Below the pieces are notes generated by a model. The model ran no database searches. It saw only the letters and a list, made by a program, of their open reading frames with translations, and had not been told where the DNA came from. The position numbers were made by a program, and so were the translations under genes. From the IMG/VR virus record IMGVR_UViG_3300044608_001664: a DNA stretch of 64,000 nt. One strand, given 5' to 3'. The DNA comes from an uncultured virus (IMG/VR IMGVR_UViG_3300044608_001664). Lineage: Duplodnaviria > Heunggongvirae > Uroviricota > Caudoviricetes > Schitoviridae. Below, one piece after another: positions 491 through 43,131 of the stretch (positions within the stretch are counted from its first letter, which is position 1; the number at the start of each line of letters is the position of its first letter).

Positions 491-493
491 CCC

Positions 494-1012: not shown

Positions 1013-1023
1013 GGAAATCCGGT

Positions 1024-3868: not shown

Positions 3869-3875
3869 CTACCAA

Positions 3876-3977: not shown

Positions 3978-3985
3978 CTAATTAC

Positions 3986-4009
3986 AAGCCACCTTCGGGT
4001 GGCTTTTTT
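3986..4009 (+). terminator. intrinsic terminator
   Basis: AAGCCACC-TTCG-GGTGGCTT then T run. Confidence 0.9.
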
Positions 4010-4027
4010 CTTTTCTGGAAGCCCTTT

Positions 4028-4432
4028 ATGGAACAGGAACTTCCCCTAGGAACCTCTCGGCGTAACGAGATCATCGAGCGTCTGCAAAGTCGCTGCGAGA
4101 TTGTTGATACCGGGTTCCTACTTAATGACTCCCCTTCTCCCTGTCATCTGTGGACCGGACCTACTTCCGGTAATGGTCGGGGAGGCAACTATGGCCGCAT
4201 GAGCCTAAACGGGCAGACCGTGGCTACCCATATCGTTGCCTACACCCACTACTACGGTTACGTGCCGAGCAAGAAGCAAATCGACCACCTCTGCAATCAG
4301 CGGCTTTGCTGCAATCCAGCTCACCTGGAATTGACCTCCCATCTGACAAATCAACGGCGTCGTGCGCAACGAGCCAAAGAAACCTCTTCTTCAATGAAGC
4401 CTTCCCTGTGGGGGCTTTCCTCACATTCATAG
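4028..4432 (+). CDS. HNH (His-Me finger) endonuclease
   Basis: CHLWTG...YGRM...THIVAY...IDHLCNQRLCCNPAHL. Confidence 0.85.
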   Translation: MEQELPLGTSRRNEIIERLQSRCEIVDTGFLLNDSPSPCHLWTGPTSGNGRGGNYGRMSLNGQTVATHIVAYTHYYGYVPSKKQIDHLCNQRLCCNPAHLELTSHLTNQRRRAQRAKETSSSMKPSLWGLSSHS

Positions 4433-4441
4433 GACACTCCC

Positions 4442-6886
4442 ATGCAAGTCACTCATCAGAACGAACACGTTACCCATGCCGTCATCGGGGGCAAACAGAC
4501 CATCGATTTCGGGATCTCCAGTAGTGCTGAATTCTTCAACATTCTCTCCAGCACGCTGTATTCGGATCAGATCCTGGCCGTGGTCCGTGAAGTGCTCTGC
4601 AATGCGTGGGATGCCCACATCGAGGCAGGCTGTACGGATAAGCCGGTCGAAGTCACCCTGACTAACGACAAGTTCGTGATCAAGGACTTCGGCAAGGGCA
4701 TCCACCATGACGACATGGGCCTGATTTATGGCACCTATGGCAATTCCACCAAGAAGAACGATGGCAAGCAGACAGGTGGCTTCGGCCTGGGGTGCAAAGC
4801 TCCCTTTGCCTACACCGACCACTTCGAAGTGATCTCTTGCCACGATGGTATCAAGACCATCTACACCCTGTCCAAATCCTCGGCACAGGCACAAGGCAAG
4901 CCAGGGATTACTCCTATCGCATCCTTCCCTACTGAAGATACGGGCCTGCAAGTCAGTATCCGTGTCAAAAACCTACAGGATCACGGTCGTTTTCTTAATT
5001 TGATTCACCGAATCACCAGTCAAGGAGACATGAATGTTTCCCTGAATGGGGAGTTGGTAGAAAAAATAGGTTTTGATGCAAGTCAGCAAAACTACACCAT
5101 CAGATTGGCAAGCACATTTGGCCATGATGGTAACGCAATCAAAATTCGCTATGGCAATGTGGTGTACCCGGTCACCCTCTGTCAGGAGATTGGGCCTGAG
5201 TACAACGCTGTCCTACGATTCCTGAATAGCCTGGGGAATGGGAATTACGCCATTCTTTTCCAGGCTGCTCCTCATAGCATTTCCGTTACGCCCAGTCGTG
5301 AATCCCTGTCCATGCAGGAACACACCATTAATTCATTGAAAACCTTGTTTAATGGTTTCCTGGATATGGTGAATCGGGAATTTCATCCTGCCTGTCTGAG
5401 AGTTGCGAAGGAAACAGTTGAAAAAGCAGTCACTGAGAAAAGAATAGGTGATTTGCTCAATCGACAAAAAGCCCTTCCCATCAAATCCTCCGTAATGCAC
5501 CAATCTATCCTTTCCACCGTGGATGAGATGGCACAGCAGCACATGGCACTGGTTTATCCGGGGGATTTGAAATTCCATAAGGAAGACATCAAACACCGTC
5601 TGGAAATGATGGTAAAGGCCAATCTGCTTCAACGGGGATCGGTGCAGTCTTACCTGCGTGATCTGGAAAAGGTGGAGGTGAATTACACCGCCCGGCACTG
5701 CCACCAGGAACAAAATTCCTGGCTGCATCGGAAAGTTTTCGCCCCTCTGGTATCCAAGCTGATGAAGGCAGGACTGGACACCTCTCGGCTATACGTCTGT
5801 GACAACAGGGATGTGAATTGCCGTGATGCCTACGGGAGAGACTATCGTAATTCCTATCTGGTTCCAGTGAAGCAAGCGTGTCCTGCTCACCATATTGCAA
5901 CGCTGCCTTACCTTCGCAATATCGTGGTACTCGCTACAGCCAAATCCGGACTAATTGATCGGGTATTTCGTCATGAGGTGTTCAAGCAGCTCGGTAGGGA
6001 GTTCGGATTCCTGTTCTACCACGTAGGGATGAAAGCTGCAGATAAAGAAGCTGCAGTGGAATTCTTTAAAACCAGTGGAATGGAGGTAGTGGATCTCACT
6101 TTCCGTCAGGATTGGGAAGAAGCTCCTGAGCCACGTACTACAGTCAAACGGAACCCAACCAAGAAAGGGGTTGTACTCCTAAGTGCACTGAAAGATCCTC
6201 ATAGTCCTTATCGGATTGACACCCGGCGATATCAAGCAGAAGACGCTGCACGGACAGAAGACCCAAAGTTCATTGTTCAAGTGTCCTTCCGGAGCAATGT
6301 TTCTAATTATGAATTGGAGACTTTCAACAGCCAAATCTCTGCTTTGATTGTCAATATGTTCGGGGATCAAGGAGGTATATGTAATTCCACTTCTGTTAAA
6401 GATGGATGGAAAGCCAAAGGGTGTAAAGCCCTGAAAACATTCCTGGAAGAGAAAGTATGCGAATACATCAACGCCAGTACTGCCATTAAGGAGTACTGGG
6501 AATTTCATCCTGAGCGGGTAGCTCCCACTTTGGATCGGCATGATGAAATGAGTCTGATCCGGGGTATCTATCGTAGTGAGCAACTTCGAAAGAAGTTCTC
6601 CCTTATTAACAACCTGACTCAGGAGGATTTAAATTACCTGGCTCTGTGGAATGCCTTGTTATCAACCGGGCGATATTATGCTCGGGCAGATAACGTGCAA
6701 GCCACCTCGGATACGCTAAACAGTATCCCGCTTCATCAAGCCAACACTGATCTGGTGAAAAAGATTTCTGGTAATCCGTTGTTGGGAATCTTGGATATTG
6801 CTGAAGTTGTCCTTGTCTTAAATTCCTCGTCTGATCAGGCTTTAATTGACAAAACCATCGCGGTTATTGATACCGTGATTTCATAA
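4442..6886 (+). CDS. rIIA: RIIA-like protein with N-terminal GHKL ATPase domain
   Basis: LYSD..AVVREVLCNAWDAH, IKDFGKGI, STK, GGFGLGCKAPFAY. Confidence 0.9.
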   Translation: MQVTHQNEHVTHAVIGGKQTIDFGISSSAEFFNILSSTLYSDQILAVVREVLCNAWDAHIEAGCTDKPVEVTLTNDKFVIKDFGKGIHHDDMGLIYGTYGNSTKKNDGKQTGGFGLGCKAPFAYTDHFEVISCHDGIKTIYTLSKSSAQAQGKPGITPIASFPTEDTGLQVSIRVKNLQDHGRFLNLIHRITSQGDMNVSLNGELVEKIGFDASQQNYTIRLASTFGHDGNAIKIRYGNVVYPVTLCQEIGPEYNAVLRFLNSLGNGNYAILFQAAPHSISVTPSRESLSMQEHTINSLKTLFNGFLDMVNREFHPACLRVAKETVEKAVTEKRIGDLLNRQKALPIKSSVMHQSILSTVDEMAQQHMALVYPGDLKFHKEDIKHRLEMMVKANLLQRGSVQSYLRDLEKVEVNYTARHCHQEQNSWLHRKVFAPLVSKLMKAGLDTSRLYVCDNRDVNCRDAYGRDYRNSYLVPVKQACPAHHIATLPYLRNIVVLATAKSGLIDRVFRHEVFKQLGREFGFLFYHVGMKAADKEAAVEFFKTSGMEVVDLTFRQDWEEAPEPRTTVKRNPTKKGVVLLSALKDPHSPYRIDTRRYQAEDAARTEDPKFIVQVSFRSNVSNYELETFNSQISALIVNMFGDQGGICNSTSVKDGWKAKGCKALKTFLEEKVCEYINASTAIKEYWEFHPERVAPTLDRHDEMSLIRGIYRSEQLRKKFSLINNLTQEDLNYLALWNALLSTGRYYARADNVQATSDTLNSIPLHQANTDLVKKISGNPLLGILDIAEVVLVLNSSSDQALIDKTIAVIDTVIS

Positions 6887-6895
6887 GGAACCAAA

Positions 6896-8647
6896 ATGAA
6901 GTCGAATACTATTCGTGTGGTGGCTGCTGTAGTCGATACTGCACAGCTCACTCTTTATAAAGAAAACGGGGAAACCCTTGTACTTCCCCAAGGTGATCCA
7001 CGCATTCGCAAAATCGTGGATGAAGTAGCCCCAGGACTACTCAAAGATGGGTATGCTGATGTAGACCTGTCTCAGGAAAATACCTACAGTGAATTTGAGA
7101 ATCAAACCAGTGGAGGTATCAAACTGTTCCGTGTTGCCAAGGCAAAGCTGAAAAGCATGTTTGGTTTTGGCAAACAGGAAAAGGCACAAGTGGATGATCT
7201 GAGCATAGGTGTGATCCCGAACCAGCTCAAACAGACACAGGCTGCAGTTGCAGAGATCCTGGAACATGCAGTTCCTGTAACCTCCGGTGAATTCCACGAA
7301 ACCACGGTTGCCCAGCAGGGAAATATCGTGGAAGAAAACGGTAAGACTCCCAAGGTTGAATCGGAAATCACTGCTCCTGAAACCATCGTGGCAGTTGTAG
7401 AGGGCAAGATCATTCCAGGGATGGAAAAGATCAAATCCCAATTCAGCCGAGCTGTCAGCAATGGTTCTACCATCGGTATGGAAAACTTCCTGAAACGGTT
7501 GAGCACCGTGATCGAGCAACGCAGTCATTCAGTGGAAGACCTCCTCAAGTTCCTGGAACGTGGGGATCTTCCGATTGCTGATGACGGTAGTATCCTGATC
7601 TACAAGGTGCTCAACCGTAAAGGTGATCGGACTAACGGCAAGTACGTGGACTGCCATACCCGCAAGGTGGAGCAGTGGACGGGTGCTTACGTCTGTATGG
7701 ACCCTTCCCTGGTCGATCCGAACCGCCGCAATGAGTGCTCCAATGGCCTGCACGTTGCCCGTCGAGGCTACGTAGGTGAGTTCAATGGTGATGTCTGTGT
7801 GCTGGCCAAGCTGGCTCCAGAGGATGTCATTGCAGTGCCTTCCTACGATGCCAACAAGATGCGTGTGTGTGGGTATCACATCCTCATGGAACTCACCCCT
7901 GCTCAATTCACTTTGCTGAAACGGAATCGCCCTCTGACTGAAGATGAAGAGGGTAAAAAGTTGCTGGCAAATGCCCTCCGTGGCCAACATATCCATAAAA
8001 CTCATGAAGTCCGGATTACCGGCCAAATGGGTGAAGGGGTACAAGTCAAGGCACTAGGGAAACAGGTTCCTGCACCGAAAGTAGAGATCCAACAGGTAGA
8101 GGCAGTTGCTCTAGCTAACCCTGCTGCAGAGGCGTTGGATCAACCTGTTGACCCCAAGGAAGTGGTAACCAAGGTAGAGCAAATGTCCCGTAAGGAGCAG
8201 GCCCAGAAGCTTTATGCTGATGGGGATGTCACAGCTCTCAAGGCACTCAAAAAAGCTGCCAAGGTAAGCTGGGACAAACTGGGTGTTCCTGATCCGGATA
8301 TCAAACCTCCGGTGAAGAAAGCCAAGGTTACAGGCAAGAACCCATCAAAAGTCATTACTGATGAACTTATCAGTGCGGCAGCTGAAGCTGTTGAACAATT
8401 TGGTGAAGATGAACTGGAACGTTATCGAGACGAACAGGAAGCCAAACCAAAAGTATCTGAACTAGTTCAGGTTACTCATGGTGAAGGCTCTCCCCGTGAG
8501 CGTATACAGAAGCTGCTTGCTATTGGTTTGACTTCAGTAGGTGTAGCTCAAGCCATCTTGGATCTGAAGAAGAAAGCCAAGAAGAGTTGGGACACACTCG
8601 GGGTAACCCCCGATCAAGTGGATCAGATCGCCAAACTGGTCAAATAA
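6896..8647 (+). CDS. rIIB: RIIB-like protein
   Basis: LPIADDGSILIYK, ECSNGLHV, PEDVIAVP.YD.NKMRVCGY; follows rIIA. Confidence 0.9.
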   Translation: MKSNTIRVVAAVVDTAQLTLYKENGETLVLPQGDPRIRKIVDEVAPGLLKDGYADVDLSQENTYSEFENQTSGGIKLFRVAKAKLKSMFGFGKQEKAQVDDLSIGVIPNQLKQTQAAVAEILEHAVPVTSGEFHETTVAQQGNIVEENGKTPKVESEITAPETIVAVVEGKIIPGMEKIKSQFSRAVSNGSTIGMENFLKRLSTVIEQRSHSVEDLLKFLERGDLPIADDGSILIYKVLNRKGDRTNGKYVDCHTRKVEQWTGAYVCMDPSLVDPNRRNECSNGLHVARRGYVGEFNGDVCVLAKLAPEDVIAVPSYDANKMRVCGYHILMELTPAQFTLLKRNRPLTEDEEGKKLLANALRGQHIHKTHEVRITGQMGEGVQVKALGKQVPAPKVEIQQVEAVALANPAAEALDQPVDPKEVVTKVEQMSRKEQAQKLYADGDVTALKALKKAAKVSWDKLGVPDPDIKPPVKKAKVTGKNPSKVITDELISAAAEAVEQFGEDELERYRDEQEAKPKVSELVQVTHGEGSPRERIQKLLAIGLTSVGVAQAILDLKKKAKKSWDTLGVTPDQVDQIAKLVK

Positions 8648-8648
8648 C

Positions 8649-8675
8649 AAAGCCCCTTCGGGGGCTTTTTCTTTT
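8649..8675 (+). terminator. intrinsic terminator
   Basis: AAAGCCCC-TTCG-GGGGCTTT plus T run. Confidence 0.9.
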
Positions 8676-8684
8676 GGAGGGTAT

Positions 8685-9005
8685 ATGCCTTACGTTGCTC
8701 AAATGCTCCATAGTTTTTCCACCAAGTTAGAAACCCCTCCTATTCCTACCAAGCGTAATACTGAGAAAGCCCGTGCTGCCAGGCAGGAAAAAGTACGAAA
8801 GTGGTTCTTGGATAACATGAAGGCAGAGTCTTGGGATACCACCACTATTGCTTCAAAAAGAGGACAAGAGAACTCTTCTTGTCTTCCTTTGTTATACGAC
8901 TTGGAAAAAGAGGGGTTTCTAACAAGAGCAGGTTTTGGTCCTCGTAAAGGTAGAGGCCGATGCCCTGTTATTTGGAAACTCACTAATCCACCTCCCTCTT
9001 CGTAG
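8685..9005 (+). CDS. putative winged-helix DNA-binding protein
   Basis: GGAGG RBS; pattern TTTIASKRG...LYDLEKEGFLTR...GRGR.PVIWKLT resembles wHTH. Confidence 0.6.
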   Translation: MPYVAQMLHSFSTKLETPPIPTKRNTEKARAARQEKVRKWFLDNMKAESWDTTTIASKRGQENSSCLPLLYDLEKEGFLTRAGFGPRKGRGRCPVIWKLTNPPPSS

Positions 9006-9028
9006 GGAGTTTTATTTTGGAGGGTGAA

Positions 9029-9244
9029 ATGATCTTCCCTACTCAAGTCAACGGAATTCCTTGTAAGTGTCATGTTGATTTTTACTCTCCTACTGAACCA
9101 GAAAAGTTCCACTTCACGGTGTTGGGTATTAATGGACATGAAGCCAAGTGGCTCCAGGCAAAAGTAACCAGAGATGATCGAGATCGTCTTATCGAAGAAT
9201 TCAAGCTAGAGGCTTTAGCGATCAAATATGGAAAGGAAGTTTAA
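9029..9244 (+). CDS. hypothetical phage protein
   Basis: GGAGG RBS, ATG at 9029. Confidence 0.6.
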   Translation: MIFPTQVNGIPCKCHVDFYSPTEPEKFHFTVLGINGHEAKWLQAKVTRDDRDRLIEEFKLEALAIKYGKEV

Positions 9245-9246
9245 AC

Positions 9247-9678
9247 ATGACCATCAACGAAATTGCACAGCGGATTTCCAAAGACTACTGGAAGCGTGAT
9301 CAATGGAACATTGAGTACTTCGATGTAGTCGGGTATTCCAATGCTCTAGTCGCAGAACTGGCGAAGCAGGGGCCGGTTGCCGAAGTGCATGCGGCACACC
9401 TGAGAAAAGCCGAGAATGGCGAGGCATGGTGCCGTGAAGTGCTGTTGTACTCAGGGAATAATCCGGGTGATTTTCTCGATGGGAAAAATTACCGCGTAAA
9501 GCTCTACACAGCACCCATCCCGCCAGTAGTACCGGAAGGCTGGAAGCTGGTGCCGATTGAACCGACAACGGAAATGATTAACGCTGGAATGCGAGTAGGA
9601 GCCTATGGGGGCTACTCGGAACGTGATTGCTATACAACCATGCTCGCTGCAGCACCCACCCCGAAGGAGGAATCATGA
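9247..9678 (+). CDS. modular accessory protein of temperate-phage type (Ea/DUF551-like)
   Basis: LYTAP...VPEGWKLVPIEPTTEMINAG...MLAAAP module. Confidence 0.7.
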   Translation: MTINEIAQRISKDYWKRDQWNIEYFDVVGYSNALVAELAKQGPVAEVHAAHLRKAENGEAWCREVLLYSGNNPGDFLDGKNYRVKLYTAPIPPVVPEGWKLVPIEPTTEMINAGMRVGAYGGYSERDCYTTMLAAAPTPKEES

Positions 9679-10250
9679 GCGACCGTTTCGGAATGCCGTT
9701 GGTTGATGTTCGTACCAACAAGGAATTGATTGCGGAAATCACCGCCCTCAAGCAGCAACTTGAGGAAGAACGTTTGCGTCTAGCGGCTTGTGGTGTAGCT
9801 GCGCTCGGCTATTTCGACGGATGTAAAGATGAGTACCGTTCGGCCAGCCTTGAAGACACGCTGAAGCTGTATGCCGAGAACCAACAACTCAAGCAGCAAC
9901 TATCCAAGTACGAGGCGGCAGGGGTGAATCTGAATGCTCGGGTTGCTGAGATTGCTGTACTCAAGCAGCAACTTGAGGAAGTGCGTAACTGGTCAGCCAC
10001 TTTAGCCTGCGCAAATATCCCCGCAGTAATGGAATATTGTCAGCAGTTAGAGCAGCAGAACGCCGAATTGCGGAAGGATGCGGAGCGGTATCGCTGGCTT
10101 AAACAAGAACACTTCGTTATCAACCCCGTTGGACAAGTTGTATGGAAACGGAACTCAGAACGCAAGTCATCTGACTGGGTAAATCTAGTCGACGGGAATG
10201 ATCTTGATAACCACATCGACGCGGCAATCGCCAGCGCGGAGGGGAAGTAA
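9675..10250 (+). CDS. Ead/Ea22-like coiled-coil accessory protein
   Basis: GGAGG RBS, ATGA overlap; LKQQL repeats; LRKDAERYRWL and LDNHIDAAI modules. Confidence 0.7.
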   Translation: MSDRFGMPLVDVRTNKELIAEITALKQQLEEERLRLAACGVAALGYFDGCKDEYRSASLEDTLKLYAENQQLKQQLSKYEAAGVNLNARVAEIAVLKQQLEEVRNWSATLACANIPAVMEYCQQLEQQNAELRKDAERYRWLKQEHFVINPVGQVVWKRNSERKSSDWVNLVDGNDLDNHIDAAIASAEGK

Positions 10251-10445
10251 ATGAGTAAGGATCACGGCTATAAAAATGTAGCTGGACAGCAGGCATTCAC
10301 TTTTGACGAATCACTGGCTATGGCTCGCCAAGTATTCGATGCCTACGGGGCAACTGGAGCAAGCATCAGCGGAATGAGCGGAAACATGATATGCGATCTA
10401 GTAAACCTAGCAGCAATCCGAGCCGAGGAGTCACGAAATGAATGA
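10251..10445 (+). CDS. hypothetical protein
   Basis: Abuts neighbours in an operon. Confidence 0.55.
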   Translation: MSKDHGYKNVAGQQAFTFDESLAMARQVFDAYGATGASISGMSGNMICDLVNLAAIRAEESRNE

Positions 10446-10857
10446 CCTAGTAGCACAACTGCGCGAAGCTGCCAGTGAGTCCGAAACCCCATTCATGTCG
10501 CTTGAGGCAAAAGCCGCCGACGCTATCGAAGCATTGCAAGCGGAGGTTGAGAATGTTCGGAGAGCCAACCTAGATTGCATGGATCACTTCAATGCGGCAA
10601 TGCAAGACCTTGCAGCACGCGATCTGGTGATTAAGCAGATGCAGTCTGCAATCGAAGGAATGTTCGGCCCTACTAGCCAGTTGAGCGATGATCGTTTTGA
10701 CAAACTCAGCGCAGTCAATGGGCTACAACCATCCACCGAAGCCCTCGACGCTTATGTGGTTAAGGAAATAGATGAAAGGGTTAATTCTCTCCCACTTGAT
10801 CCCGCGATCAAGAACCGCATTACTACAATGATCCGGCATACACAGGAAGGAAAATGA
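10438..10857 (+). CDS. hypothetical protein, temperate-phage accessory type
   Basis: MNDLVAQLRE...KAADAIEALQAE module; GAGGAG RBS. Confidence 0.65.
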   Translation: MNDLVAQLREAASESETPFMSLEAKAADAIEALQAEVENVRRANLDCMDHFNAAMQDLAARDLVIKQMQSAIEGMFGPTSQLSDDRFDKLSAVNGLQPSTEALDAYVVKEIDERVNSLPLDPAIKNRITTMIRHTQEGK

Positions 10858-11096
10858 AACAAGAAACTCCCCCCATCGAACGAACTAAGATGTTCTGGGC
10901 CAGTAATGATGATTCTTGGCACACCACCGAAACTGTTTGTGCGGTTACCGAGTTATCCTTAAGCACGCTGATGAATTGGCGTGCTCAAGGCACTGGACCT
11001 GTGTTCTTCAAATCCGGTAAGCTCGTCTTCTACCGAAAGAAGGACATCCTCACTTGGTTGAATTCGTTCCAACCATCTCAGTCTCTAGCCGCGTGA
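10854..11096 (+). CDS. xis: excisionase / AlpA-like HTH protein
   Basis: SLSTLMNWRAQGTGPVFFKSGKLVFYRKKDILTWL (MerR-like Xis HTH); convergent with the integrase. Confidence 0.85.
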   Translation: MKQETPPIERTKMFWASNDDSWHTTETVCAVTELSLSTLMNWRAQGTGPVFFKSGKLVFYRKKDILTWLNSFQPSQSLAA

Positions 11097-12189
11097 TGAC
11101 TGCACGTAACGTAGGGATCTCGATCTGGATGTAATCATCAGTCACATCTTCCCGTGCTCGATGATTCATCAGTCGTTTGATCGTATACTTGGAAGGGGCT
11201 GGCTCAAGAGCATTCAAGTGTGACACGAAGGTTCGCCTCAAGTCATGCACCGTAATATCCTCACCAAGTTTGGCTAAGGATTTACGCACATCAACGATGT
11301 GTCCTACTTCCGATCTTCTGGATTGGAAAACATACTCTGAGCCGTCCAGGAGAGGTTTAATCCGCTCCCAAAGGTATGGTCCCATCGGGACAATATGCTC
11401 ATCAGAATTCTTGGTTTCGCCTTCCATTAAGACAACACATCGATCCTTGATCTGTGTTTGTTTGAGGGTAAGAACTTCGTTCTTACGCAAACCAAGAAAG
11501 AGGAGCATCAAGACCGCCCCCTTCATCCATCCATCCAACAACTCGGCTTGTTCAATCCAGGCAGCTACACCGAACTTCTTGATGAAGCCTTTACGCTTCT
11601 TCTCAGGGTTCCATAGATGCTTGCGAGAGAGTACATGCACTGGATTGGGGATGACATCTCCAAAGTTCAGTGCAGCTCGAACAAAGCGTAGTGCATTGTT
11701 GGCGCACACCGGACCACGATCCTTGGTGATCTTGCCATGCAAGGACACCACAAACTCCTCAGTGACCTGTTTGATAGGCTTGGTATGCCAAGACTCCAAG
11801 ACAGTATCCCGAAGCCATTCGTAGCCTTCAGAGGTCTTCTGCTTGATCTGCTTACCTTGTCCTGATGTACGGGTGATCAAGTAGATATCCAGAACGTCTT
11901 TCAGCGTCTTGGATAGCTTCCTGGTAGGAAGCTCTCCCTTGGACATTCCCAAGAGAATCTGGCGTGCATCCTCTCGTGCAGCATCAGGGAAAATCACGCC
12001 ATGTCTGCCTAGCTTACGACGAATCTTGCCGGTATCCGTTCGGCCTTCCACGAAGTAGGTCTTGACTCCCTTGGGAGTGACATAAAGACCAAAGCCAGGA
12101 AGCACTGTATCGTAGTGCAATTCCTGGCTTTTCTCGGGAGGTGGAAGGGGCAACCCTTCGACCGCTGCTTTGGTCAGTTTGAGCTTCAT
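11050..12189 (-). CDS. int: tyrosine integrase with N-terminal arm-binding domain
   Basis: N-term KLTKAAVE...YDTVLPGFGLYVTPKGVKTY; catalytic R (GLRKNE), K (TKN), HDLRR, H (MNH), Y (DDY) all present. Confidence 0.95.
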   Translation of the reverse strand: MKLKLTKAAVEGLPLPPPEKSQELHYDTVLPGFGLYVTPKGVKTYFVEGRTDTGKIRRKLGRHGVIFPDAAREDARQILLGMSKGELPTRKLSKTLKDVLDIYLITRTSGQGKQIKQKTSEGYEWLRDTVLESWHTKPIKQVTEEFVVSLHGKITKDRGPVCANNALRFVRAALNFGDVIPNPVHVLSRKHLWNPEKKRKGFIKKFGVAAWIEQAELLDGWMKGAVLMLLFLGLRKNEVLTLKQTQIKDRCVVLMEGETKNSDEHIVPMGPYLWERIKPLLDGSEYVFQSRRSEVGHIVDVRKSLAKLGEDITVHDLRRTFVSHLNALEPAPSKYTIKRLMNHRAREDVTDDYIQIEIPTLRAVITRLETEMVGTNSTK

Positions 12190-12199
12190 GATTTTCTCC

Positions 12200-12480
12200 T
12201 GGCTATAAATTGGCTATATGTTGCTTAACCAGACCTGGAGAGAGTCATGTAAGTCATTGAATAATTGGTCGGGGCGGTGGGATTCGAACTCACGACCCTC
12301 TGCTCCCAAATCTGATAGGCGTGCGTACACTACGTTACCGCACGCTACTTGGCAAGGAATTGGTATCCTGATGAGTACCTCAGAATACCTTTCGTTACCG
12401 CAGAGTTGGCTATAAATTGGCTATATTTTCTATGCCCTGAGCATTTATAGCCAAAGCCAGAATAACTCACTGACTATAAA
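12200..12480. repeat. integrase arm-type sites: TGGCTATAAA-like repeats flanking the attP core
   Basis: TGGCTATAAATTGGCTATAT at 12200-12219 and 12407-12426; inverted copy TTTATAGCCA at 12444-12453; TGACTATAAA at 12471-12480. Confidence 0.8.
12266..12310 (-). other. attP: attP core: 3' half of a tRNA-Pro(TGG), anticodon loop to CCA
   Basis: Minus strand reads TTTGGGAGCAGAGGGTCGTGAGTTCGAATCCCACCGCCCCGACCA; no 5' half present; adjacent to int. Confidence 0.88.
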
Positions 12481-12515
12481 AGGAAAAAGGGAACGGTTGC
12501 CCAGACCGTTCCCTT
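12478..12515 (-). terminator. intrinsic terminator on minus strand, before attP
   Basis: AAGGGAACGGT-7nt-ACCGTTCCCTT followed by T-rich run on minus strand. Confidence 0.8.
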
Positions 12516-12593
12516 CCCCAATATCCTTTCCTAAACAAGCCAAGAGGAGTGGCAAGGATTGCTTAGGAAAGGGTACTACACCACAACACCACG
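12480..12593 (-). ncRNA. candidate small RNA (about 115 nt)
   Basis: Own promoter-like sequence, 14-bp stem with G-U only on minus strand, terminator, no ATG-started ORF. Confidence 0.5.
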
Positions 12594-12599
12594 GAACAA

Positions 12600-12628
12600 A
12601 GTGTACACCCTCTGAATTGGGTATACAA
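12600..12628 (-). promoter_or_regulatory. sigma70-type promoter
   Basis: TTGTAT-N17-TACACT on minus strand. Confidence 0.6.
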
Positions 12629-12637
12629 GTCCTCAGA

Positions 12638-13078
12638 TCACTTCAGTAGAGATACTTCTACCTGCCTACGCAGAACCAATCCAGGGAGCTTCTTACCCCC
12701 TCCCCAGACCCATTTCTGGAGTTCATCTGCAGCCTCTTCCCAGTCACCAGCATTCACCTTACGTCGTAAGGTAGAAATCTTGTATCGACTGATTCCTAGG
12801 TTGTAACAGAAGTCTCCAATTGCAGCCTGCTTGCTCTCATCCATGTACAAAATAGGAGAGAGATTACAGGCTGCTTGGAGAAACACAGCAGCATCCTGCT
12901 GTGCCATGGATTCTGCTACTGGCTTACTGATCTGATCCCCTGGTTTGATCTTACGACCATCAGGATAAGCAGTAGATCCGTATCCGATTGTCCAAACACC
13001 AGCAGGGCACAGGTATGCCTTTAAACGTAGTCCTTCGAAACGCCTGATCAGACGCATCAGGATCTCAGAGAACATCAA
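12638..13078 (-). CDS. endolysin, GH24 lysozyme
   Basis: FEGLRLKAYLCPAGVWTIGYG, FCYNLG, LPGLVLRR. Confidence 0.92.
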   Translation of the reverse strand: MMFSEILMRLIRRFEGLRLKAYLCPAGVWTIGYGSTAYPDGRKIKPGDQISKPVAESMAQQDAAVFLQAACNLSPILYMDESKQAAIGDFCYNLGISRYKISTLRRKVNAGDWEEAADELQKWVWGGGKKLPGLVLRRQVEVSLLK

Positions 13079-13094
13079 CCATCTCCGTTGGGGA

Positions 13095-13577
13095 TCACTT
13101 TCCGAATCCTTTTTTCAGGCTTCGATCCACAAACCAGAAAGTAATGATGGATGCAGCAATTGCCTTTTCATCTGGTCCCCAGAGTTTGAGAATCGCAGTA
13201 GTAGTAGAAGCGCCCCCATCAAGCAAGACTACAAACTGAGAAACCAAGGCTGCTGTGTAGAGGACGATGACCCACCAAAAGGTGATCAATGGACGCATGA
13301 GGCTATTGATCGCATCAACGAACTTGATCCCTGTCTGTACTGCTTGAGCTTTGGTAGCCTCAATGAGTGCAGAAATCTCTGCCAAACCAATCTCAGCAGT
13401 GGATTTTGCGTTGATCTGATCAATAGCCGATTTGCTTCGTAGCTCGTCAGCCTGGAGTTGTTTATCGAACATCCGAGCTTCGTGGTCACGCTCGTTCTTT
13501 CGGTCAACCCATTTCAGGATTTCGGGGGCTAGACGAAATAGCCCCCCAAATAACGTTCCAACTAGTGTTTCAATCAT
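13095..13577 (-). CDS. holin-like membrane protein (3TM/GTA type)
   Basis: Hydrophobic segments; NSLMRPLITF and IITFWFVDRS; in lysis cassette. Confidence 0.65.
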   Translation of the reverse strand: MIETLVGTLFGGLFRLAPEILKWVDRKNERDHEARMFDKQLQADELRSKSAIDQINAKSTAEIGLAEISALIEATKAQAVQTGIKFVDAINSLMRPLITFWWVIVLYTAALVSQFVVLLDGGASTTTAILKLWGPDEKAIAASIITFWFVDRSLKKGFGK

Positions 13578-13591
13578 AAAAGCCTCTCGGT

Positions 13592-13714
13592 TTAATAATC
13601 AGTTCGCCTGCGTTTATGAATGCTGGCTTGATGGTGTCTGGTATGCACGGTGTCCCGTGCACCCCATATAGCAATCCCAACGCATAGAGCGATGATCAGC
13701 AGGTCTGCAAACAT
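13592..13714 (-). CDS. 40-aa single-TM peptide in lysis cassette (not in ORF track)
   Basis: Manual translation MFADLLIIALCVGIAIWGARDTVHTRHHQASIHKRRRTDY; fills the gap between the two holin-like genes. Confidence 0.5.
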   Translation of the reverse strand: MFADLLIIALCVGIAIWGARDTVHTRHHQASIHKRRRTDY

Positions 13715-13716
13715 GA

Positions 13717-14025
13717 TTATCCCTTTCCTTCCATGGCTCGCTGGAAGATCCGTTCTAACCCAGATGTACCCAGACTAGCCAATCCTGCAGCAACGCCGAT
13801 TTGTCCAACCATGGATAAATTAGGTTCCCAGATGAGCGCAATACCTGCAGCCATCGCTAGACCACCAGTGCTCAAAGCACGCCCTAGCAAAAGACGGAAA
13901 GTAATCCGCTCGTTACTAACCATGAGTTGACCAAGACCAATCGCAATGCCAACGATTGAAAAAATGAGCGACCCTGCTAGTTGATCCTGCCAGTGTCGCG
14001 CAATATCACTGAGTTTATCGATCAT
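13717..14025 (-). CDS. putative holin
   Basis: Three hydrophobic segments; AAAGGA RBS; heads lysis cassette. Confidence 0.7.
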   Translation of the reverse strand: MIDKLSDIARHWQDQLAGSLIFSIVGIAIGLGQLMVSNERITFRLLLGRALSTGGLAMAAGIALIWEPNLSMVGQIGVAAGLASLGTSGLERIFQRAMEGKG

Positions 14026-14146
14026 GTAATGGTTCCTTTTCACTGGGCATTTTGTTGATGTGATTCAAGTTACCAATCAGCTCAGTGGTAGGTTCTCGAT
14101 GATTGAGAAACCAAACATGAAGTGCTCGGAATACTCCTCCCATTGC

Positions 14147-14785
14147 TTATGCAATTCGTTTGAATGTTGCGGTATTGGAAACTACCGTACTACCTACAGT
14201 AGTAGGCCATGCAGGTGCATCACCTGCAGAGGTGCCAGCAACCGATACGATGTACTCTTCTGTCGAACCTGCTGTGGGTTTAACGACATCCCCAAGGGCA
14301 TATACCGTATTGATAGCAAAAGTGCTTGGGGTATAGAACTTGGGAATCGTGGTAAAGGTGATTCCACCATCCACCGTATTACCTGCTAAGGTCTGGTTCC
14401 AGACAGGCTCATTGGTTGCAGCAGCAGTCTTACCTTCATTGGTGCCTGGGGTAATCACAGTCACCACGTAGATTTTCCCATTGGCTCCAGCTACTGAAGC
14501 ATCTAGGGCAGCTACGCGATCCCCTAGAGCAAGAGGAGCATTAGGGGTACGTGCCCCATAGTTATAGATATCTGCGGAAGTACCTGAGACAGCCCAAGCA
14601 CCATTATTCACACTCCCGTTATGAGATAACGTAGCCTTGGCAAGAAGCTCACCAAGATTCAAAGGAGTATTGGTATCGGCAAGAATGGTGGCATCTGCCA
14701 CCCCTGCTTTACCTGGGAAATCACAGGTGAATGTCTGGGTAACAGTCCGAGTAAACGTAACTCTACGTGTGCCTTTGGTTGCCAT
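14147..14785 (-). CDS. putative virion protein with CBM5/12-like repeats
   Basis: Thr/Ala-rich; two repeats LALGDRV..IYVV..GKT..EPVW and YALGDVV..YIV..GTS..PAW. Confidence 0.6.
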   Translation of the reverse strand: MATKGTRRVTFTRTVTQTFTCDFPGKAGVADATILADTNTPLNLGELLAKATLSHNGSVNNGAWAVSGTSADIYNYGARTPNAPLALGDRVAALDASVAGANGKIYVVTVITPGTNEGKTAAATNEPVWNQTLAGNTVDGGITFTTIPKFYTPSTFAINTVYALGDVVKPTAGSTEEYIVSVAGTSAGDAPAWPTTVGSTVVSNTATFKRIA

Positions 14786-14850
14786 TATTTAATCAATCAG
14801 CGAAATAGTTGAGCCAGCCTGAATTATATAGAGGTTGAGCCATACAAATA

Positions 14851-14878
14851 AAAATAGCCCAGAAATCTGGGCTATTTT
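14851..14878 (-). terminator. intrinsic terminator, possibly bidirectional
   Basis: AAAATAGCCCAGA-AA-TCTGGGCTATTTT. Confidence 0.8.
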
Positions 14879-14893
14879 AAATCTGAGTCTGGA

Positions 14894-15181
14894 TTAATGT
14901 AACAAGTGGTGCACCAGGATAAACCCGACAGAACCTAATACAGGGAACATAAAGTCCATGGAACCATCCAGACTCTTGTAGACAAACTGGAATCCTTTAA
15001 ATGGATTCAGCCCACCTACATGCCCTCCATGAACAAGTTTCTTTTCATACTGGGCGTGCTCCCTTCCCAGGAAAAAGAAAGGACCACATAAAGCTGCTGC
15101 CCATTCATTCCCTGAAATTAGGAAAATAACCAGAGTAATCAACAGAGAGAACCCAAGATGTTCGAAATTGGTGCGATTCAT
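14894..15181 (-). CDS. small membrane protein
   Basis: Hydrophobic; FFLGREHAQYE motif. Confidence 0.65.
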   Translation of the reverse strand: MNRTNFEHLGFSLLITLVIFLISGNEWAAALCGPFFFLGREHAQYEKKLVHGGHVGGLNPFKGFQFVYKSLDGSMDFMFPVLGSVGFILVHHLLH

Positions 15182-15201
15182 ACATTCCTTTCAAGAAAAA
15201 G

Positions 15202-15765
15202 TTACCACTGAACTGCTTCGATTTCTTCCAGAGAAACTGCAGTATCAATCTGAGATTTCAATGTTCTGGCTTTGACATGCAAAGCATTACCAGCTTGAGC
15301 CATAAATGCAGGGAGTGCCTGCATCATTGTGTAATCCAAAGTGATCGTACTGTTGTCCTGGCAAGTCCATTCAATACTGAAAGATTCACCAATTGCTTGG
15401 GCTGCTTGAACAGCTAAAGAAATTCGTTGAATAGACGCTGCATCTGAATCAATAGTTTTCCCAAATGCAGTGAACCCAGCAGATTCCTCTACATCCCTGG
15501 CTTTTGTAATTCTGGCTTTTGCTATCAGTTTTGCTGCTGATAATTCAGCTTCCCCTAGTTGCCACGTAAAAAAAACCTCATCCCACTGATGGTAAGGGCT
15601 GGGTGCGTCAGGTTTAGAGAAGAATATCCCATCAAAATAATGAGTAGCACCATCTGGGATACCATCAACTAAAATGTATTGATTGTCTATTTCCACTAAA
15701 TCAACGGTGGTTGCTACCTTTTCAGTAATACTTCCGTACTGATTAACTTTAATATACAAATTCAT
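15202..15765 (-). CDS. tail fibre-associated protein (DUF4376-like)
   Basis: PSPYHQWD, IDSDAASIQRI, WTCQDNS, LEEIEAVQW; directly downstream of fibre. Confidence 0.75.
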   Translation of the reverse strand: MNLYIKVNQYGSITEKVATTVDLVEIDNQYILVDGIPDGATHYFDGIFFSKPDAPSPYHQWDEVFFTWQLGEAELSAAKLIAKARITKARDVEESAGFTAFGKTIDSDAASIQRISLAVQAAQAIGESFSIEWTCQDNSTITLDYTMMQALPAFMAQAGNALHVKARTLKSQIDTAVSLEEIEAVQW

Positions 15766-18700
15766 TTCATGACCCCCTGTGCAAAAAGAAAGCCCCCATA
15801 ATCCGCAATATGAAAACCGCGTAAACGTCCTTTAATCTCATGCGTACCTACAGAAAGTTGAACAGCGTAGTCAATCTGAATCATTCCCGAAGCACCTCCA
15901 CCGTAAAACGTACTACTAAGCTGTTCAAAGACAGGTCGCGTCCTAACGACGCTGCCGTTGATGTATATATCAATATAAGTAGCGCCCGCCCCCTCCGAGT
16001 TGTCAGCGCGATAATTAAATTGCACCGTGATTACTACTATCGCAGGGGCTACTAGCGTAAGGTAGCTAGTTGGAGAATAGTAACTGCTGACATAGCTTCC
16101 GGAATTCGACCATGAGTTAATCGTGGTCGCATTAACTGCTGCATCGGCAATCTTGTTGGTGCCCACTGTCAAGTTATCAATATGCGCCGATGTGACTGAC
16201 AGGTTCCCAATGTGTGCACTTCCGATAGCCGCCGTTTCTATCTGAGCAGACCCAATAGCAGCTAATCCAATCTTGGCTCTAGTAATCGCAGCATCTGCGA
16301 TATGCGCCGATCCAATCGCCGCCGACGCAATGTAAGTCGAGGCGTTGGCAGGTGTAATCTGGTTAATCGACGACATCGCACCGCTGGCCGGACCTGGCGT
16401 GTAAGGTGACGGGCCACTGGCATTGGCATTGACTACCTCGAACTGAGGTCCAGCAAACCACAGCCAAGAATCCGTATTGCCGTAGATGGTGTTGTTCTTA
16501 CGGATAAACAGGCAGGCGTAGGCGGCATTCGATGGCATCGTTGCCATGATAGAAAGGCGAACAAAACCATTAAACGAGTCAGTATTCATATTCCGCAGTA
16601 CGCTGGTTTGTGCGCCTAATTCCGTACCGGAAATGATCGAATTATTAACATCGAACCACTGAAGTCCAATATCTCCGTAGCAACGGTGTGCCGACATATA
16701 AACTGAGAAACAGTATTTTTGTCCTGGAACTACAGCAATGGAGTGATTAGCATCAAATCCACCTAACGGATAAACGTCGCACGCAGCTGCAGTGTCATTG
16801 GCACTACTGACCCCATAGATACCAGCCTGATGGATACAAACGCTATTGGTAACACCTTTCAGGTAATACTGTGGCGACCCTGAAAATTGTTCGTAAGCGA
16901 GCTTCAATGTATCAATGTTAGTGCTGTTAGGATTCCACCCAAGCGTCGTAGTCAGCGTGCGCTGGTCGGAGTTGGGGATCAGGTTTTGCCCAATGACTGT
17001 GCGCGAGTTATCGACCTGTGTGCCAGCCCCCGAAGCCACGCCCTGAATGGCTCCGTTGCCATCAACACTTGTCGTATTGGCGTCAAGGGTGCCGGTATAG
17101 CCCAGCGTGCGCGTCGAAGTCGGCGAACCAGGATGCCATGGCGTTGGATCAATCTGGTAGGTATTGGCATAGCCCAGGTAAGGCATAGCCACGTAGAGGT
17201 GCGTATCTGCTGCTGTCGAAGTACGCTGGGTGCGTACCTCAATGTAGCACTTGACTGCGCCAGCAGGTGCCGTCGCAAAACCCCATAGCTTGACGAAATC
17301 CGCAGCTGTCTTGCCCCAAGATGTATCTCCAACTACCAGCCCAACGCCGCCAGTGACTTGATTAAAACCACCGACATTATTGCCGTTGATGTCTTGAAAG
17401 TTGATTTCCAGTCGAGCGTTGCCCAGGAAGATTTCGACCATCGCCTGCGCTTCGATGCGCTGACCAGCGACCACAGGAATGGATTGCAGGCCAGCCGTGT
17501 GCACCGAACTAGCGGCATTGGAATCGAGCGGACCACTGTACCCGAACTTTATGGCGTAATACGGAGTTGGCGCCCCATTGCTACCGGGCGCCACAATAGC
17601 GAAGGTATCTAGCGTTTTGTCAACGTGTACATAATTATTCCAGCCAGTCAAATCACTGGTAATCAGCGAATTGGACAGTTGATTGCCACCTGTACTAATG
17701 GTCTTGCTATCCGCGCTACTATCTGCAAAGTTAAAAGTCAGGCCATCGAAAATAACCGTGCCGTTGAAGGTCGAACCCGACCCTCCATAACAACCCATAA
17801 CGTAAATCTGGATGCCATAAATCCGTTCGCCGGGATTGACCCGCGCCGAGAACGGAATGCGTTGCCAAGAACCTGTAGTGGCATCAGGTTTAACCATCGT
17901 ATCCACGTAAGTTGTGCAGGCTGAGTTATTGAACAACCGAACCAGCACCAAAGGCAATCCTGATGTTCGGCTGACCAAATACATATCGACCGTGCCGGTG
18001 ACAACGGTGCCAACAGCCATTGGTGCATTCGCCCAAGTTACCACCCTTGCAAATCCACCATCAATTCCTGCCGTTGTGATTCGTGCCGCATTGCTGCCGA
18101 AACGCACAGTCGAGGTTTCTTTGCTAATACCGGATGTTGCGCCCCACGCCCCCCAGTTATCCGGAAGTGCGCCTGTCCATAACTCAAATGAAGGATTGAA
18201 GCCGAGCGTTGAAGCTGCGTCATTCGACATAATTTTGTCGAGCGGAATGCTAGTCAGGTTGTTGTTCCAGTTGGCCCCATAGGTAGCATTCAGGTCGCCC
18301 GTGTAGCCCAGGCCGCCAATCGTTACCTGTCCTCCCCCGGCTCCGTAAATCTGCCCGTTACTGCCTATCGTGATCTGGTTGTTACTGATCGTAGTGCCAC
18401 TACCTGCCCCAACCCCATAAAGCTGGCCGGAGGCATTGATCCCGATCTGGTTATTGCTAACCGTAGTGCCAGCCCCCGAAGATACTCCCTGGATATTTCC
18501 ACTGCCATCCACGTAAGTTGTATTGGCATCCAGCGCACCCGTATAACCCAGTCCTCCGATAGTCACTTGACCACCACCAGCGCCAGAGAGCGCGCCGTTT
18601 GCCGCCAGCGTAATACTGTCATTTGCAACATCAAGGCTGTTCGCCACCCACGCCGATTTTGTGCTACCGACCTCCAGCTTTATATCGCAGATGCCGATGT

Positions 18701-20651
18701 CGCCTGCCTGTGCTTCGGCGAAGAAACGTAGGATGCAATTCGCCATGTCGGCATGAGCACTTGTCCAGGTAAAGGTATACACCGTGGCGGTGGTCGTCAA
18801 AGCAACCGAGCTTTCCGGCAGCGTATCCGGATACAAGTCAACACGTAGCACGCGACCCGCTGTTGAGGACCACGCCTTGAACGACACGGTGAACGTCGTG
18901 CCGTGAGCTTGTAGGTTAATGTATGGGCTAAGTGCAGCAACAAAATTCTGCCCATTCGGGATGCTCAGATAGGTGCCATCAGTAGCGATTGACGTATTTA
19001 CCAGGGACAGCGTTCCAAGTGACCATGCCTTCAACCCACGAACCAGATTGGCATTGGCCTGTGGTGCAAGGTCAGAACGCAATGCCGAGCCAGCAGACAG
19101 GATGACATTGCCATTCGTATCCCGAATCGACAGCCCACGGGTATCAATCTGATCTGCATCCAATTGGGTGATGAACGCCTTGTTCATATACACCCCTGCC
19201 GGGACGGTTTTACCACTGGGGAGTACTTGAGGAGTGGTTACAACAATAAAAGGTTTTTCAGCCTCAGTCCCTTTACCTACCCAGAAATAGTCCACATCAA
19301 AACCAGCATCAATAGTGGTGCCGTCGTTATAGACTCCAAATCCGCCAACCAAGCCATTCACATCAACCTTGGCAGTGTAGAGGGCACCGATGCCGTCCAC
19401 ATCATTAATCACTGCCTGCATGTTGGTTTCCACCGAAGCGATATCATTGCCCAGAGTGGTCTGCACGGTTGTCGTTTGACTGGCCAATGCTGATGTAGCG
19501 TCAGCCCGAGCTTGTTGTTCAGCCACTACTGCAGCCGCTGTATTAACGGCCTGTGCTACCAGTGAAGTGATGTAAGACGCATTGGCACTATCCTGCTCGG
19601 CCCGAGTAATGACTTCCCCTTCTAGGGCAGCAGAGGTATTTACCGTCTGAGCAGCCACACCATTCAGCGTGGAAGCCAGTGCACTGGTATCCGTCGAACG
19701 TGTGGTGGCCTCCTCCAAAATAGCCGCCCTATTGGTTGCCGTTTCGGCATAGATGGCATTGGTAGAAGCCGCCAGTGTTTCTGTCTCAGAAGACCTCGCT
19801 AGTTGCTCAGACAGGACCGCTGCCTTATTCGTTAAGGCTTCGGCATATAGAGTGTTCGTGGCAGATGCCAGGGCGCTGGTTTCAGTGGATCGAGCTATTT
19901 GCTCGGACACAATAGACGCAGTGTTATTACTGGTCTGCACCCCAACTGCATTTACTGAAGAGGCTATTACAGAATCATCAGTTGCCCTAACATTCTGTTC
20001 TTCAATAATCGCAGCAGTGTTATCGTTGAATCGACTGCCAATTGCATTGACTGTATTTACTACAGCCTCATCTGCAGTAGTTCTTGCCTGGGTTTCATTC
20101 ACAATAGCAGTACTTACTGCATCTGTAGAAAACTCCAGTTGAGCTAGTAAAGATGCAAATGTGTCATTTGCGTCAACACGATCAATAATTTCTTGAGCAA
20201 GATTACCTTGAAGTACCTCCAAGAGATCAATTCGAGTACGCAATTCCTGCGCTAGAAAACTCTCATCAATCCGTGCAGATAGCGCAGCAATTAGTTCTTC
20301 TACAGAACTGAATGGAATAGCAGAAGCTGGCCCAATAAGGGAACCTTCGGTTCCATTTATGGAAATAATCTTTATCCAATAAAAGTATTGGCGCATCTCC
20401 TCTTCTGGAATCCTATCAAAATAGGAATTACCAGAAAACGGAGGAAGTTCAATTGCCAGCCCAATATCATTCGAATGTGCTCGCCACAACCGAATATAGC
20501 TAACAGCGTGCGGATTTGTCCCAGGCAAGGTTAGCGTCAATAACACCCCGCCAGCAGTGCCTTGAGCAGTCAATACACTGCTGTTATCTGGATCACCTGG
20601 GAGAGGACCAGCCCAGCCACCAGTCCCACAAACAGTATCATTGCACGCCAT
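15762..20651 (-). CDS. tail fibre / host-specificity protein
   Basis: Fn3-like N-term (YFYWIKII), heptad repeats, YTAKVDVNGLVGGFG, several beta-rich modules, C-term AAIGSAHI repeats. Confidence 0.88.
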   Translation of the reverse strand: MACNDTVCGTGGWAGPLPGDPDNSSVLTAQGTAGGVLLTLTLPGTNPHAVSYIRLWRAHSNDIGLAIELPPFSGNSYFDRIPEEEMRQYFYWIKIISINGTEGSLIGPASAIPFSSVEELIAALSARIDESFLAQELRTRIDLLEVLQGNLAQEIIDRVDANDTFASLLAQLEFSTDAVSTAIVNETQARTTADEAVVNTVNAIGSRFNDNTAAIIEEQNVRATDDSVIASSVNAVGVQTSNNTASIVSEQIARSTETSALASATNTLYAEALTNKAAVLSEQLARSSETETLAASTNAIYAETATNRAAILEEATTRSTDTSALASTLNGVAAQTVNTSAALEGEVITRAEQDSANASYITSLVAQAVNTAAAVVAEQQARADATSALASQTTTVQTTLGNDIASVETNMQAVINDVDGIGALYTAKVDVNGLVGGFGVYNDGTTIDAGFDVDYFWVGKGTEAEKPFIVVTTPQVLPSGKTVPAGVYMNKAFITQLDADQIDTRGLSIRDTNGNVILSAGSALRSDLAPQANANLVRGLKAWSLGTLSLVNTSIATDGTYLSIPNGQNFVAALSPYINLQAHGTTFTVSFKAWSSTAGRVLRVDLYPDTLPESSVALTTTATVYTFTWTSAHADMANCILRFFAEAQAGDIGICDIKLEVGSTKSAWVANSLDVANDSITLAANGALSGAGGGQVTIGGLGYTGALDANTTYVDGSGNIQGVSSGAGTTVSNNQIGINASGQLYGVGAGSGTTISNNQITIGSNGQIYGAGGGQVTIGGLGYTGDLNATYGANWNNNLTSIPLDKIMSNDAASTLGFNPSFELWTGALPDNWGAWGATSGISKETSTVRFGSNAARITTAGIDGGFARVVTWANAPMAVGTVVTGTVDMYLVSRTSGLPLVLVRLFNNSACTTYVDTMVKPDATTGSWQRIPFSARVNPGERIYGIQIYVMGCYGGSGSTFNGTVIFDGLTFNFADSSADSKTISTGGNQLSNSLITSDLTGWNNYVHVDKTLDTFAIVAPGSNGAPTPYYAIKFGYSGPLDSNAASSVHTAGLQSIPVVAGQRIEAQAMVEIFLGNARLEINFQDINGNNVGGFNQVTGGVGLVVGDTSWGKTAADFVKLWGFATAPAGAVKCYIEVRTQRTSTAADTHLYVAMPYLGYANTYQIDPTPWHPGSPTSTRTLGYTGTLDANTTSVDGNGAIQGVASGAGTQVDNSRTVIGQNLIPNSDQRTLTTTLGWNPNSTNIDTLKLAYEQFSGSPQYYLKGVTNSVCIHQAGIYGVSSANDTAAACDVYPLGGFDANHSIAVVPGQKYCFSVYMSAHRCYGDIGLQWFDVNNSIISGTELGAQTSVLRNMNTDSFNGFVRLSIMATMPSNAAYACLFIRKNNTIYGNTDSWLWFAGPQFEVVNANASGPSPYTPGPASGAMSSINQITPANASTYIASAAIGSAHIADAAITRAKIGLAAIGSAQIETAAIGSAHIGNLSVTSAHIDNLTVGTNKIADAAVNATTINSWSNSGSYVSSYYSPTSYLTLVAPAIVVITVQFNYRADNSEGAGATYIDIYINGSVVRTRPVFEQLSSTFYGGGASGMIQIDYAVQLSVGTHEIKGRLRGFHIADYGGFLFAQGVMK

Positions 20652-43089: not shown

Positions 43090-43131
43090 ATTCAGTTTCT
43101 CACTATCTTGTGGGGATGGCCGATATTCTAA

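Follow-up and report, generated by a model that had tools for sequence, protein, structure and literature searches.

A conserved three-hairpin element at the 3′ end of the lysis cassette, beside attP, in an integrase-bearing N4-like phage

We analyzed a 64,000-nt stretch of DNA (hereafter the window) from an uncultured virus (IMG/VR IMGVR_UViG_3300044608_001664) and found that its minus-strand lysis cassette ends in a conserved, structured element that adjoins the phage attachment site. The element consists of a small hairpin (HP1), a GU-rich linker, a long hairpin (HP2), and an intrinsic terminator (HP3). We read it as an operon-end terminator with a structured 3′ UTR, confined to a small clade. 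Under the explanation that we place first, and to which we give about an even chance, the element is the structured 3′ UTR of the late lysis transcript, terminating that transcript and shielding attP and the integrase gene. It is not a proven separate regulatory RNA. An earlier note on this DNA had described it as a candidate lysogeny small RNA (sRNA) beside attP. The conserved minus-sense RNA structure and its terminator were borne out, but the lysogeny sRNA reading is weak.

By its gene content, the window is from an N4-like phage. In addition to the two RNA polymerase genes in Table 1, it encodes rIIA and rIIB, DNA polymerase, primase, SSB, portal, major head protein, and terminase. Set among plus-strand genes is a minus-strand block that runs, in order, tail fiber, tail protein, holin, phrog_6637, endolysin, the element, attP, and a tyrosine integrase, such that the integrase gene lies downstream of the element on the same strand. 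N4-like genomes with an integrase have been reported from metagenomes, including freshwater ones, and that report's account of integrase-bearing N4-like phages has them known solely from metagenomes (PMC10654107). Thus, the lysogeny module itself is not new. Near this module, positions 8649-9009 (+) form a stand-alone unit: a bidirectional terminator (8649-8668), then a 106-codon ORF without a family match (8685-9005) that is served by a GGAGGG ribosome-binding site, and a terminator-like hairpin belonging to the unit (8992-9009). The phage also encodes a tRNA-Gly (anticodon TCC; 29813-29886, +) and, in the replication and early regions, five homing-endonuclease-like genes of the HNH and GIY-YIG types (4028-4432, 21561-22274, 30581-31177, 61341-61997, and 63490-63999).

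Table 1. Positions of the element and of the genes and sites discussed in the text
Feature	Position	Strand	Basis or description
HTH_17 Xis-like gene, convergent	10854-11096	+	family scan
Tyrosine integrase with arm-DNA-binding domain	11050-12189	-	phrog_1, E 5e-37; Pfam Phage_integrase, Arm-DNA-bind_3
attP	12199-12480	.	arm-type repeats flanking tRNA-Pro-like core
HP3, intrinsic terminator, tail CUUUUAUAG	12474-12519	-	terminator scan
HP2, long hairpin	12520-12577	-	fold; lower stem sequence-conserved, upper stem differs by lineage
GU-rich linker GUGGUGUUGUGGUGUAG	12576-12592	-	unpaired in MFE fold
HP1, 9-bp hairpin, 8-nt loop, then CUUUGUUC	12602-12627	-	fold; weakly terminator-like
Endolysin (phage lysozyme), last lysis-cassette gene	12638-13078	-	phrog_7, E 1.7e-46; Pfam Phage_lysozyme, E 2.7e-35
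Holin	13717-14043	-	member of minus-strand lysis block
Upstream boundary of lysis unit	14823-14878	-	terminator hairpin 14878-14851; perfect TATAAT 14828-14823
Virion RNA polymerase, 3449 aa	32740-43089	-	phrog_2206
N4-like RNAP subunit	62568-63476	+	N4-type

On the minus strand, the order 3′ of the endolysin stop codon (TGA, 12640-12638) is HP1, linker, HP2, HP3, and an attP arm, with HP1 beginning 10 nt downstream of the stop. The arms of HP1 are UGUAUACCC and GGGUGUACA (12627-12602). HP2 folds into a 4-bp outer stem, a 14-bp lower stem, and a 4-bp upper stem (GCCA/UGGC); it contains a 5-nt bulge, UCCUU (12558-12554), and a 7-nt unpaired apical loop, CUCCUCU (12549-12543), which carries a conserved CACUCCUC. 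In HP3, a hairpin of 15 pairs, seven of them G-C, with a 7-nt loop (12519-12483) is followed by CUUUU. HP3 is the top-ranked terminator-like site within positions 1-20000, and on the plus strand no T run follows its hairpin. The G/U-rich leader at 12592-12576, the 14-bp stem with its bulge and loop, the terminator that follows, and the lack of an ATG in this stretch, all described in the earlier note, were confirmed.

The 171-nt stretch folds at -63.6 kcal/mol, compared to a shuffle mean of -47.6 (z -3.9), and the 116-nt stretch that corresponds to the RNA proposed earlier gives z -3.6; in both cases, 0 of 200 shuffles were as good. The plus strand of the stretch folds nearly as well (z -4.4). 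As the energy is similar on both strands, the strand is set by the U tail and by conserved G.U pairs. An Rfam scan of the window at gathering thresholds returned tRNA-Gly only, and an E-value scan of 12150-12700 gave best hits with E of at least 0.3, all far below gathering scores. We rejected a 36-codon TTG frame (12555-12445) as coding, as it lacks a Shine-Dalgarno sequence and, by reading, most of its changes relative to a related contig (L002, below) are non-synonymous. Pairing of the linker or the HP3 loop with the HP2 loop in a pseudoknot or kissing interaction was also rejected, since by eye the only options are 4 bp long and vary between lineages.

The element was seen in three lineages only. 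One is the window itself (a second record, L001, comes from the same phage), and another is the viral contig L002, with an endolysin protein that is 66% identical. The third, the metagenome contig L024, is closely related to L002. Scans with the endolysin protein located it at 2 of 11 loci in viral contigs (L001 and L002) and at 0 of 4 loci in genome contigs, and the integrase scan of viral contigs returned L001 and L002 alone. Pattern scans yielded a true copy at one of seven metagenome loci (L024). Among viral sequences, these scans gave L001 and L002 only, and none of nine further loci matched model R1 at E <=1. Run over 23 sources, R1 found full copies solely in the window, L001, L002, and L024. 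The nearest record, G001, had no match. Three others (L019, L021, and L022) score 16-37 bits with R1, yet they were chosen by the search pattern itself. The 37-bit score belongs to L021, a 1.8-kb metagenome contig. Its positions 1014-1259 hold a tandem array of short palindromes, CCCTTTCCTAA..TAGGAAAGG, each similar to the lower stem of HP2, but this pattern-picked array differs from the element in architecture. In all three lineages that carry it, the element begins 10-13 nt past the endolysin stop codon.

We compared substitution in the element with that in its neighbors. Between L002 and L024, the element differs at 6 of 153 positions and endolysin four-fold sites at 16 of 72 (binomial P = 2e-10). 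For other markers, the differences are 24/59 at phrog_6637 four-fold sites, 11/286 at endolysin codon positions 1 and 2, and 19/166 in the arm-to-core part of attP. None of the six differences falls in a stem: two are in the HP1 loop, one is an indel at the HP1-linker junction, one is in the HP3 loop, and two are in the tail. Between the window and L002, 39 of 155 positions of the element are changed, compared to 34 of 49 endolysin and 81 of 141 integrase four-fold sites. By these comparisons, which like the covariation below rest on three independent sequences, the element is clearly under purifying selection. Identity between L002 and L024 shows a gradual increase toward the element (73, 86, 82, 91, and 96%); thus, part of the conservation may reflect a recent recombination tract.

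The structure is maintained along with the sequence. Pairing holds in 97.3% of the 147 cells of the consensus; slid controls reach 47-60%. The earlier note had proposed covariation in integrase-positive relatives as a check, and across the three sequences four pairs are compensatory, with both sides changed: two in HP2 and two in HP3. Of 500 shuffles, only 5 performed as well as the real alignment. HP2 helix 3 contains 22 pairs, of which two are compensatory and 17 invariant (97% of cells paired). In HP1, nine of nine pairs are kept in all three sequences, including a U.G pair and one change from A-U to G.U. In a low-depth variant contig from a metagenome, each HP3 arm is shorter by a single base (12509 and 12493 are missing).

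The linker and HP2 stand out in the closer comparison. About 16 of 27 linker positions are identical between the window and L002. L002 and L024 share the linker unchanged except for one T indel at the HP1-linker junction, and over the ~80 nt of linker plus HP2 they have this one indel and no substitutions, where four-fold sites lead us to expect ~18 differences (P = 4e-8). The HP2 loop, CCACUCCUC, is identical across all three lineages, and its CUCCU is unpaired in each, although the upper stem beneath it is GCCA/UGGC in the window and UGGUG/CACCG in L002 and L024. Retention of a loop over a rebuilt stem is what one would see if something reads the loop, for example as a seed or protein site. 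The UCCUU bulge is present in one of the three lineages only. Since the HP2 loop and lower stem are conserved beyond the needs of termination, a further RNA function is likely.

How the element might act in cis can be outlined from its position. We infer an upstream origin of transcription, termination at HP3, and action of HP1 and HP2 in cis. Host RNA polymerase would initiate close to the TATAAT (14828-14823) that follows the 14878-14851 terminator, and the lysis transcript, from ~14820 to 12480 (-), would carry holin, phrog_6637, and endolysin, then HP1 and HP2. The TATAAT was read by eye and is a putative promoter. At HP3, a strong predicted Rho-independent terminator, the polymerase would be released. 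This would keep late transcription from attP and from the integrase gene on the same strand, and the hairpins would provide the lysis mRNA with an exonuclease-protected 3′ end. Read this way, the element is ordinary phage transcription architecture, a terminator plus accessory hairpins that shield attP and int. For LUZ7, an N4-like phage, late transcription of every Crick-strand gene, lysis genes included, is ascribed to host RNA polymerase (PMC9163698).

The tail of HP3 is of a style, TTTTTATTT/TTTTATAG, that is common to other late-strand terminators. We noted such terminators at 14851-14878, 43100-43160, 47840-47890, 49475-49498, and 55212-55237 (-), each a single G+C-rich hairpin with the tail TTTTTATTT(A/G), and several are closely followed by -10-like boxes, the TATAAT at 14828-14823 being one. 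Whereas these other late terminators are single hairpins, the element has three hairpins and a conserved linker, which exceeds what termination needs. An antitermination role like that of HK022 put was rejected, since any RNA extended as far as HP3 would contain the element, making the terminator pointless.

The main rival to a structured 3′ UTR acting in cis is an unlikely one: that a stable ~115-150-nt fragment (linker, HP2, and HP3, with or without HP1), either cut from the lysis mRNA late in infection or remaining from it, serves as a 3′ UTR-derived riboregulator and acts in trans. Its CACUCCUC loop would work on Shine-Dalgarno-like sequences of the host or phage or would titrate an RNA-binding protein. 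The unpaired CUCCU, retained in 3/3 lineages despite differing upper-stem pairing, and the near identity of linker and HP2 between L002 and L024 favor this reading. A terminator common to the element and the upstream mRNA is likewise a feature of 3′ UTR-derived sRNAs as a class, and late intergenic small RNAs, one of them apparently processed, have been described in LUZ7 (PMC9163698).

The search for targets argues against this rival. It was noted earlier that both unpaired parts of HP2 are complementary to the AAGGA and AGGAG ribosome-binding sites of the phage. They are, but the match is generic, as any CU-rich loop would have it, and the UCCUU bulge is not conserved. In our gene list, an upstream AGGA is found at 22 of 54 starts, AAGGA at 13, and AGGAG at 6. 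The extended loop complement, GAGGAGTG, occurs twice in the window, once as the opposite strand of the element itself, compared to 2.58 occurrences expected, and none of the 54 starts has a GRGGRGTG-type site. Predicted duplexes with the starts of int, endolysin, holin, phrog_6637, and xis are unremarkable (-12.7 to -18.4 kcal/mol) and not conserved in L002. Thus, beyond generic Shine-Dalgarno sequences, we found no phage target in the window. The C that interrupts the U tail also counts against a riboregulator.

In its most specific form, the proposal is that the invariant CACUCCUC loop serves as the anti-Shine-Dalgarno seed or protein decoy of a translational riboregulator tied to lysis or lysogeny, in a small clade of N4-like phages that are temperate and live in lakes; we regard this as doubtful. 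If it were true, integration would place this conserved, structured RNA, which closes the lysis cassette, at the edge of the prophage. Should the HP2 loop act in trans, a selected non-coding RNA beside attP would offer a handle on lysogeny control in N4-like phages.

Less probable still is the model of the earlier note, in which a sigma-70 promoter of the element's own is used by host RNA polymerase in the lysogen to make a 116-nt RNA that blocks ribosome-binding sites and confers immunity. The hexamers of the proposed promoter, TTGTAT-N17-TACACT, are present at 12628-12623 and 12605-12600, and TTG plus TAnnnT, the six most informative promoter positions, are kept in L002 and L024. The strict pattern TTGnnn-N16-18-TAnnnT is moderately rare, with 20 (+) and 41 (-) sites in the 64 kb. 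However, the hexamers match at 7 of 12 positions, the scan tool does not call a promoter there, and sites of equal grade number 358 (+) and 388 (-), or about one per 170 nt. The hexamers are also essentially the two arms of HP1, which explains them without a promoter. Within the 17-nt spacer, five of five variable positions fall in the 8-nt HP1 loop and none in the nine stem positions (P = 0.009), and the sole hexamer change, A to G (TTGTGT-N17-TACACT in L002 and L024), turns an A-U pair into G.U. HP1 lies outside the proposed RNA, yet it is conserved as a minus-sense RNA hairpin with G.U pairs. Transcripts that contain it must therefore start upstream of the proposed +1, as part of the endolysin mRNA. 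A sigma-70 promoter of the element's own thus appears improbable.

The immunity part of this model fared no better. Pairing between the leader and a CA-rich tract in the early region (59351-59385), which the earlier note had described as partly complementary, is at chance level: the duplex energy is -17.4 kcal/mol, compared to a 5th percentile of -17.6 for all 80-nt windows of the real sequence (both strands, coarse steps), which served as the control, and the best unrelated sites for the leader reach -24 kcal/mol. A blastn-short search of the 171-nt element against the window gave no second match longer than 12 nt (E at least 0.5), and model R1 found no second copy there, leaving RNA-based immunity through target repeats in the window unsupported. 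Two arguments for a lysogeny RNA come from context. Judging from the attP layout, the integrated element would face out of the prophage from its end, an arrangement typical of morons. The other is that the ORFs scanned near int, which took in part of the small ORFs, include none with a CI- or Cro-type domain. Against the second argument, an N4-like prophage may need no repressor of early genes, which may stay silent because their polymerase is delivered by the virion.

The attachment site itself bears on one further alternative. Arm-type repeats, TGGCTATAAATTGGCTATA, occupy 12200-12222 and 12407-12429; inverted copies are found at 12443-12454 and 12470-12480, and the outermost copy overlaps the HP3 tail. 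In L024, an insertion of ~250 bp separates HP3 from the attP arm and includes a 71-codon reverse ORF (2617-2832, -) with no Pfam family. The element thus keeps its place after the endolysin gene and is not tied to attP. A DNA-level site, whose inverted repeats would bind a regulator or a recombination accessory factor extending the attP P arm, is very improbable. In its favor, both arms of the HP2 lower stem keep their sequence and hardly covary, and the outermost arm-type repeat adjoins the element. However, the L024 insertion parts the element from attP, a DNA palindrome would be mismatched wherever HP1, HP2, and HP3 have conserved G.U pairs, the HP2 half-sites are ~28 bp apart, and the U tail fits RNA termination.

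The tRNA-Pro-like core of attP (~12257-12312) shows an 85.7% match to annotated attP sites and tRNA-Pro 3′ ends of Burkholderia phages. In metagenome contigs, depth at the core is raised 10-50 times, and the contigs of four DNA runs break off there, a pattern that fits the presence and the absence of an integrated form alike. Identity to bacterial genomes is as high as 96% over 53 nt. Within one GTDB order, 346 of 401 genomes match the core, with top identities of 95-96% across 53-56 nt; an identical copy occurs in none of the 401. In L024, the core stops after GGGTCGTGAGTTC and runs into unrelated sequence near the contig end (3030-3155), which could reflect a deletion, a recombinant, or a chimeric assembly.

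Comparison with known systems places the element closest to transcript ends. Like the operon-end and tandem intrinsic terminators of phages, it has a G+C-rich stem-loop and U tract right after the last gene of an operon and maintains pairing through compensatory changes, with HP1 as a weaker form of the signature; unlike them, it adds two conserved hairpins and a linker, and HP2 is conserved beyond what termination requires. The 3′ UTR-derived sRNAs of proteobacteria include CpxQ, SroC, and DapZ. The element resembles these in lying in the 3′ UTR of a protein gene, sharing its terminator, and being conserved above neutral sites, but the class is further defined by a stable small species, arising through processing or an internal start, and by chaperone binding (Hfq or ProQ), whereas the element is described here at the level of sequence. 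The c4 RNA of P1 and P7 and the CI RNA of P4 are short structured phage immunity RNAs whose loops pair with targets, in the case of c4 including a ribosome-binding site. Unlike the element, which has none in the window, they have target repeats in the operon that they control. The sib element of lambda, located downstream of int and beyond attP, regulates int mRNA by way of RNase III. Both sib and the element are hairpin elements that are parted from int by attP on integration, such that linkage to int differs between phage and prophage; in contrast to sib, the element precedes attP and the int gene, with which it shares a strand, behind a terminator.

Two sets of phage small RNAs offer parallels in setting. 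StxS, a small RNA of a Shiga-toxin phage, is described as arising from early termination at the late terminator and as present in lysogens (PMC7547250). As with the element, a late-region terminator in a temperate phage defines the RNA, but the account of StxS has it made from a constitutive late promoter upstream of the late genes and not from the 3′ end of the lysis genes (PMC7547250). The late sRNA candidates of LUZ7 are likewise small, non-coding, and intergenic in an N4-like genome; alternative terminators are described for them, and one species seems to be processed (PMC9163698). As described, the LUZ7 gap is at another locus, between orf69 and orf70 on the Watson strand, with ssb (orf65) upstream of it and the vRNAP gene downstream (PMC9163698). 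LUZ7 is lytic, whereas the phage in the window bears an integrase, and the likeness drawn here is one of description.

In the early region, we also observed a repeated motif, CGCTCCGCGNATGG, which occurs three times on the plus strand (59045-59058, 59460-59473, and 60684-60697; 0.04 expected). Each copy holds a short hairpin of the GCGC-TCC-GCGC type. The copies may resemble the hairpin promoters of N4, and they may be early promoters of the virion RNA polymerase. The CA-rich tract considered above lies directly behind an early-region terminator (59318-59343) and ahead of the next CGCTCCGCGNATGG copy. The third copy overlaps the start of an ORF (60694-61023, +) that matches phrog_6271, labeled "toxin" (E 8e-12).
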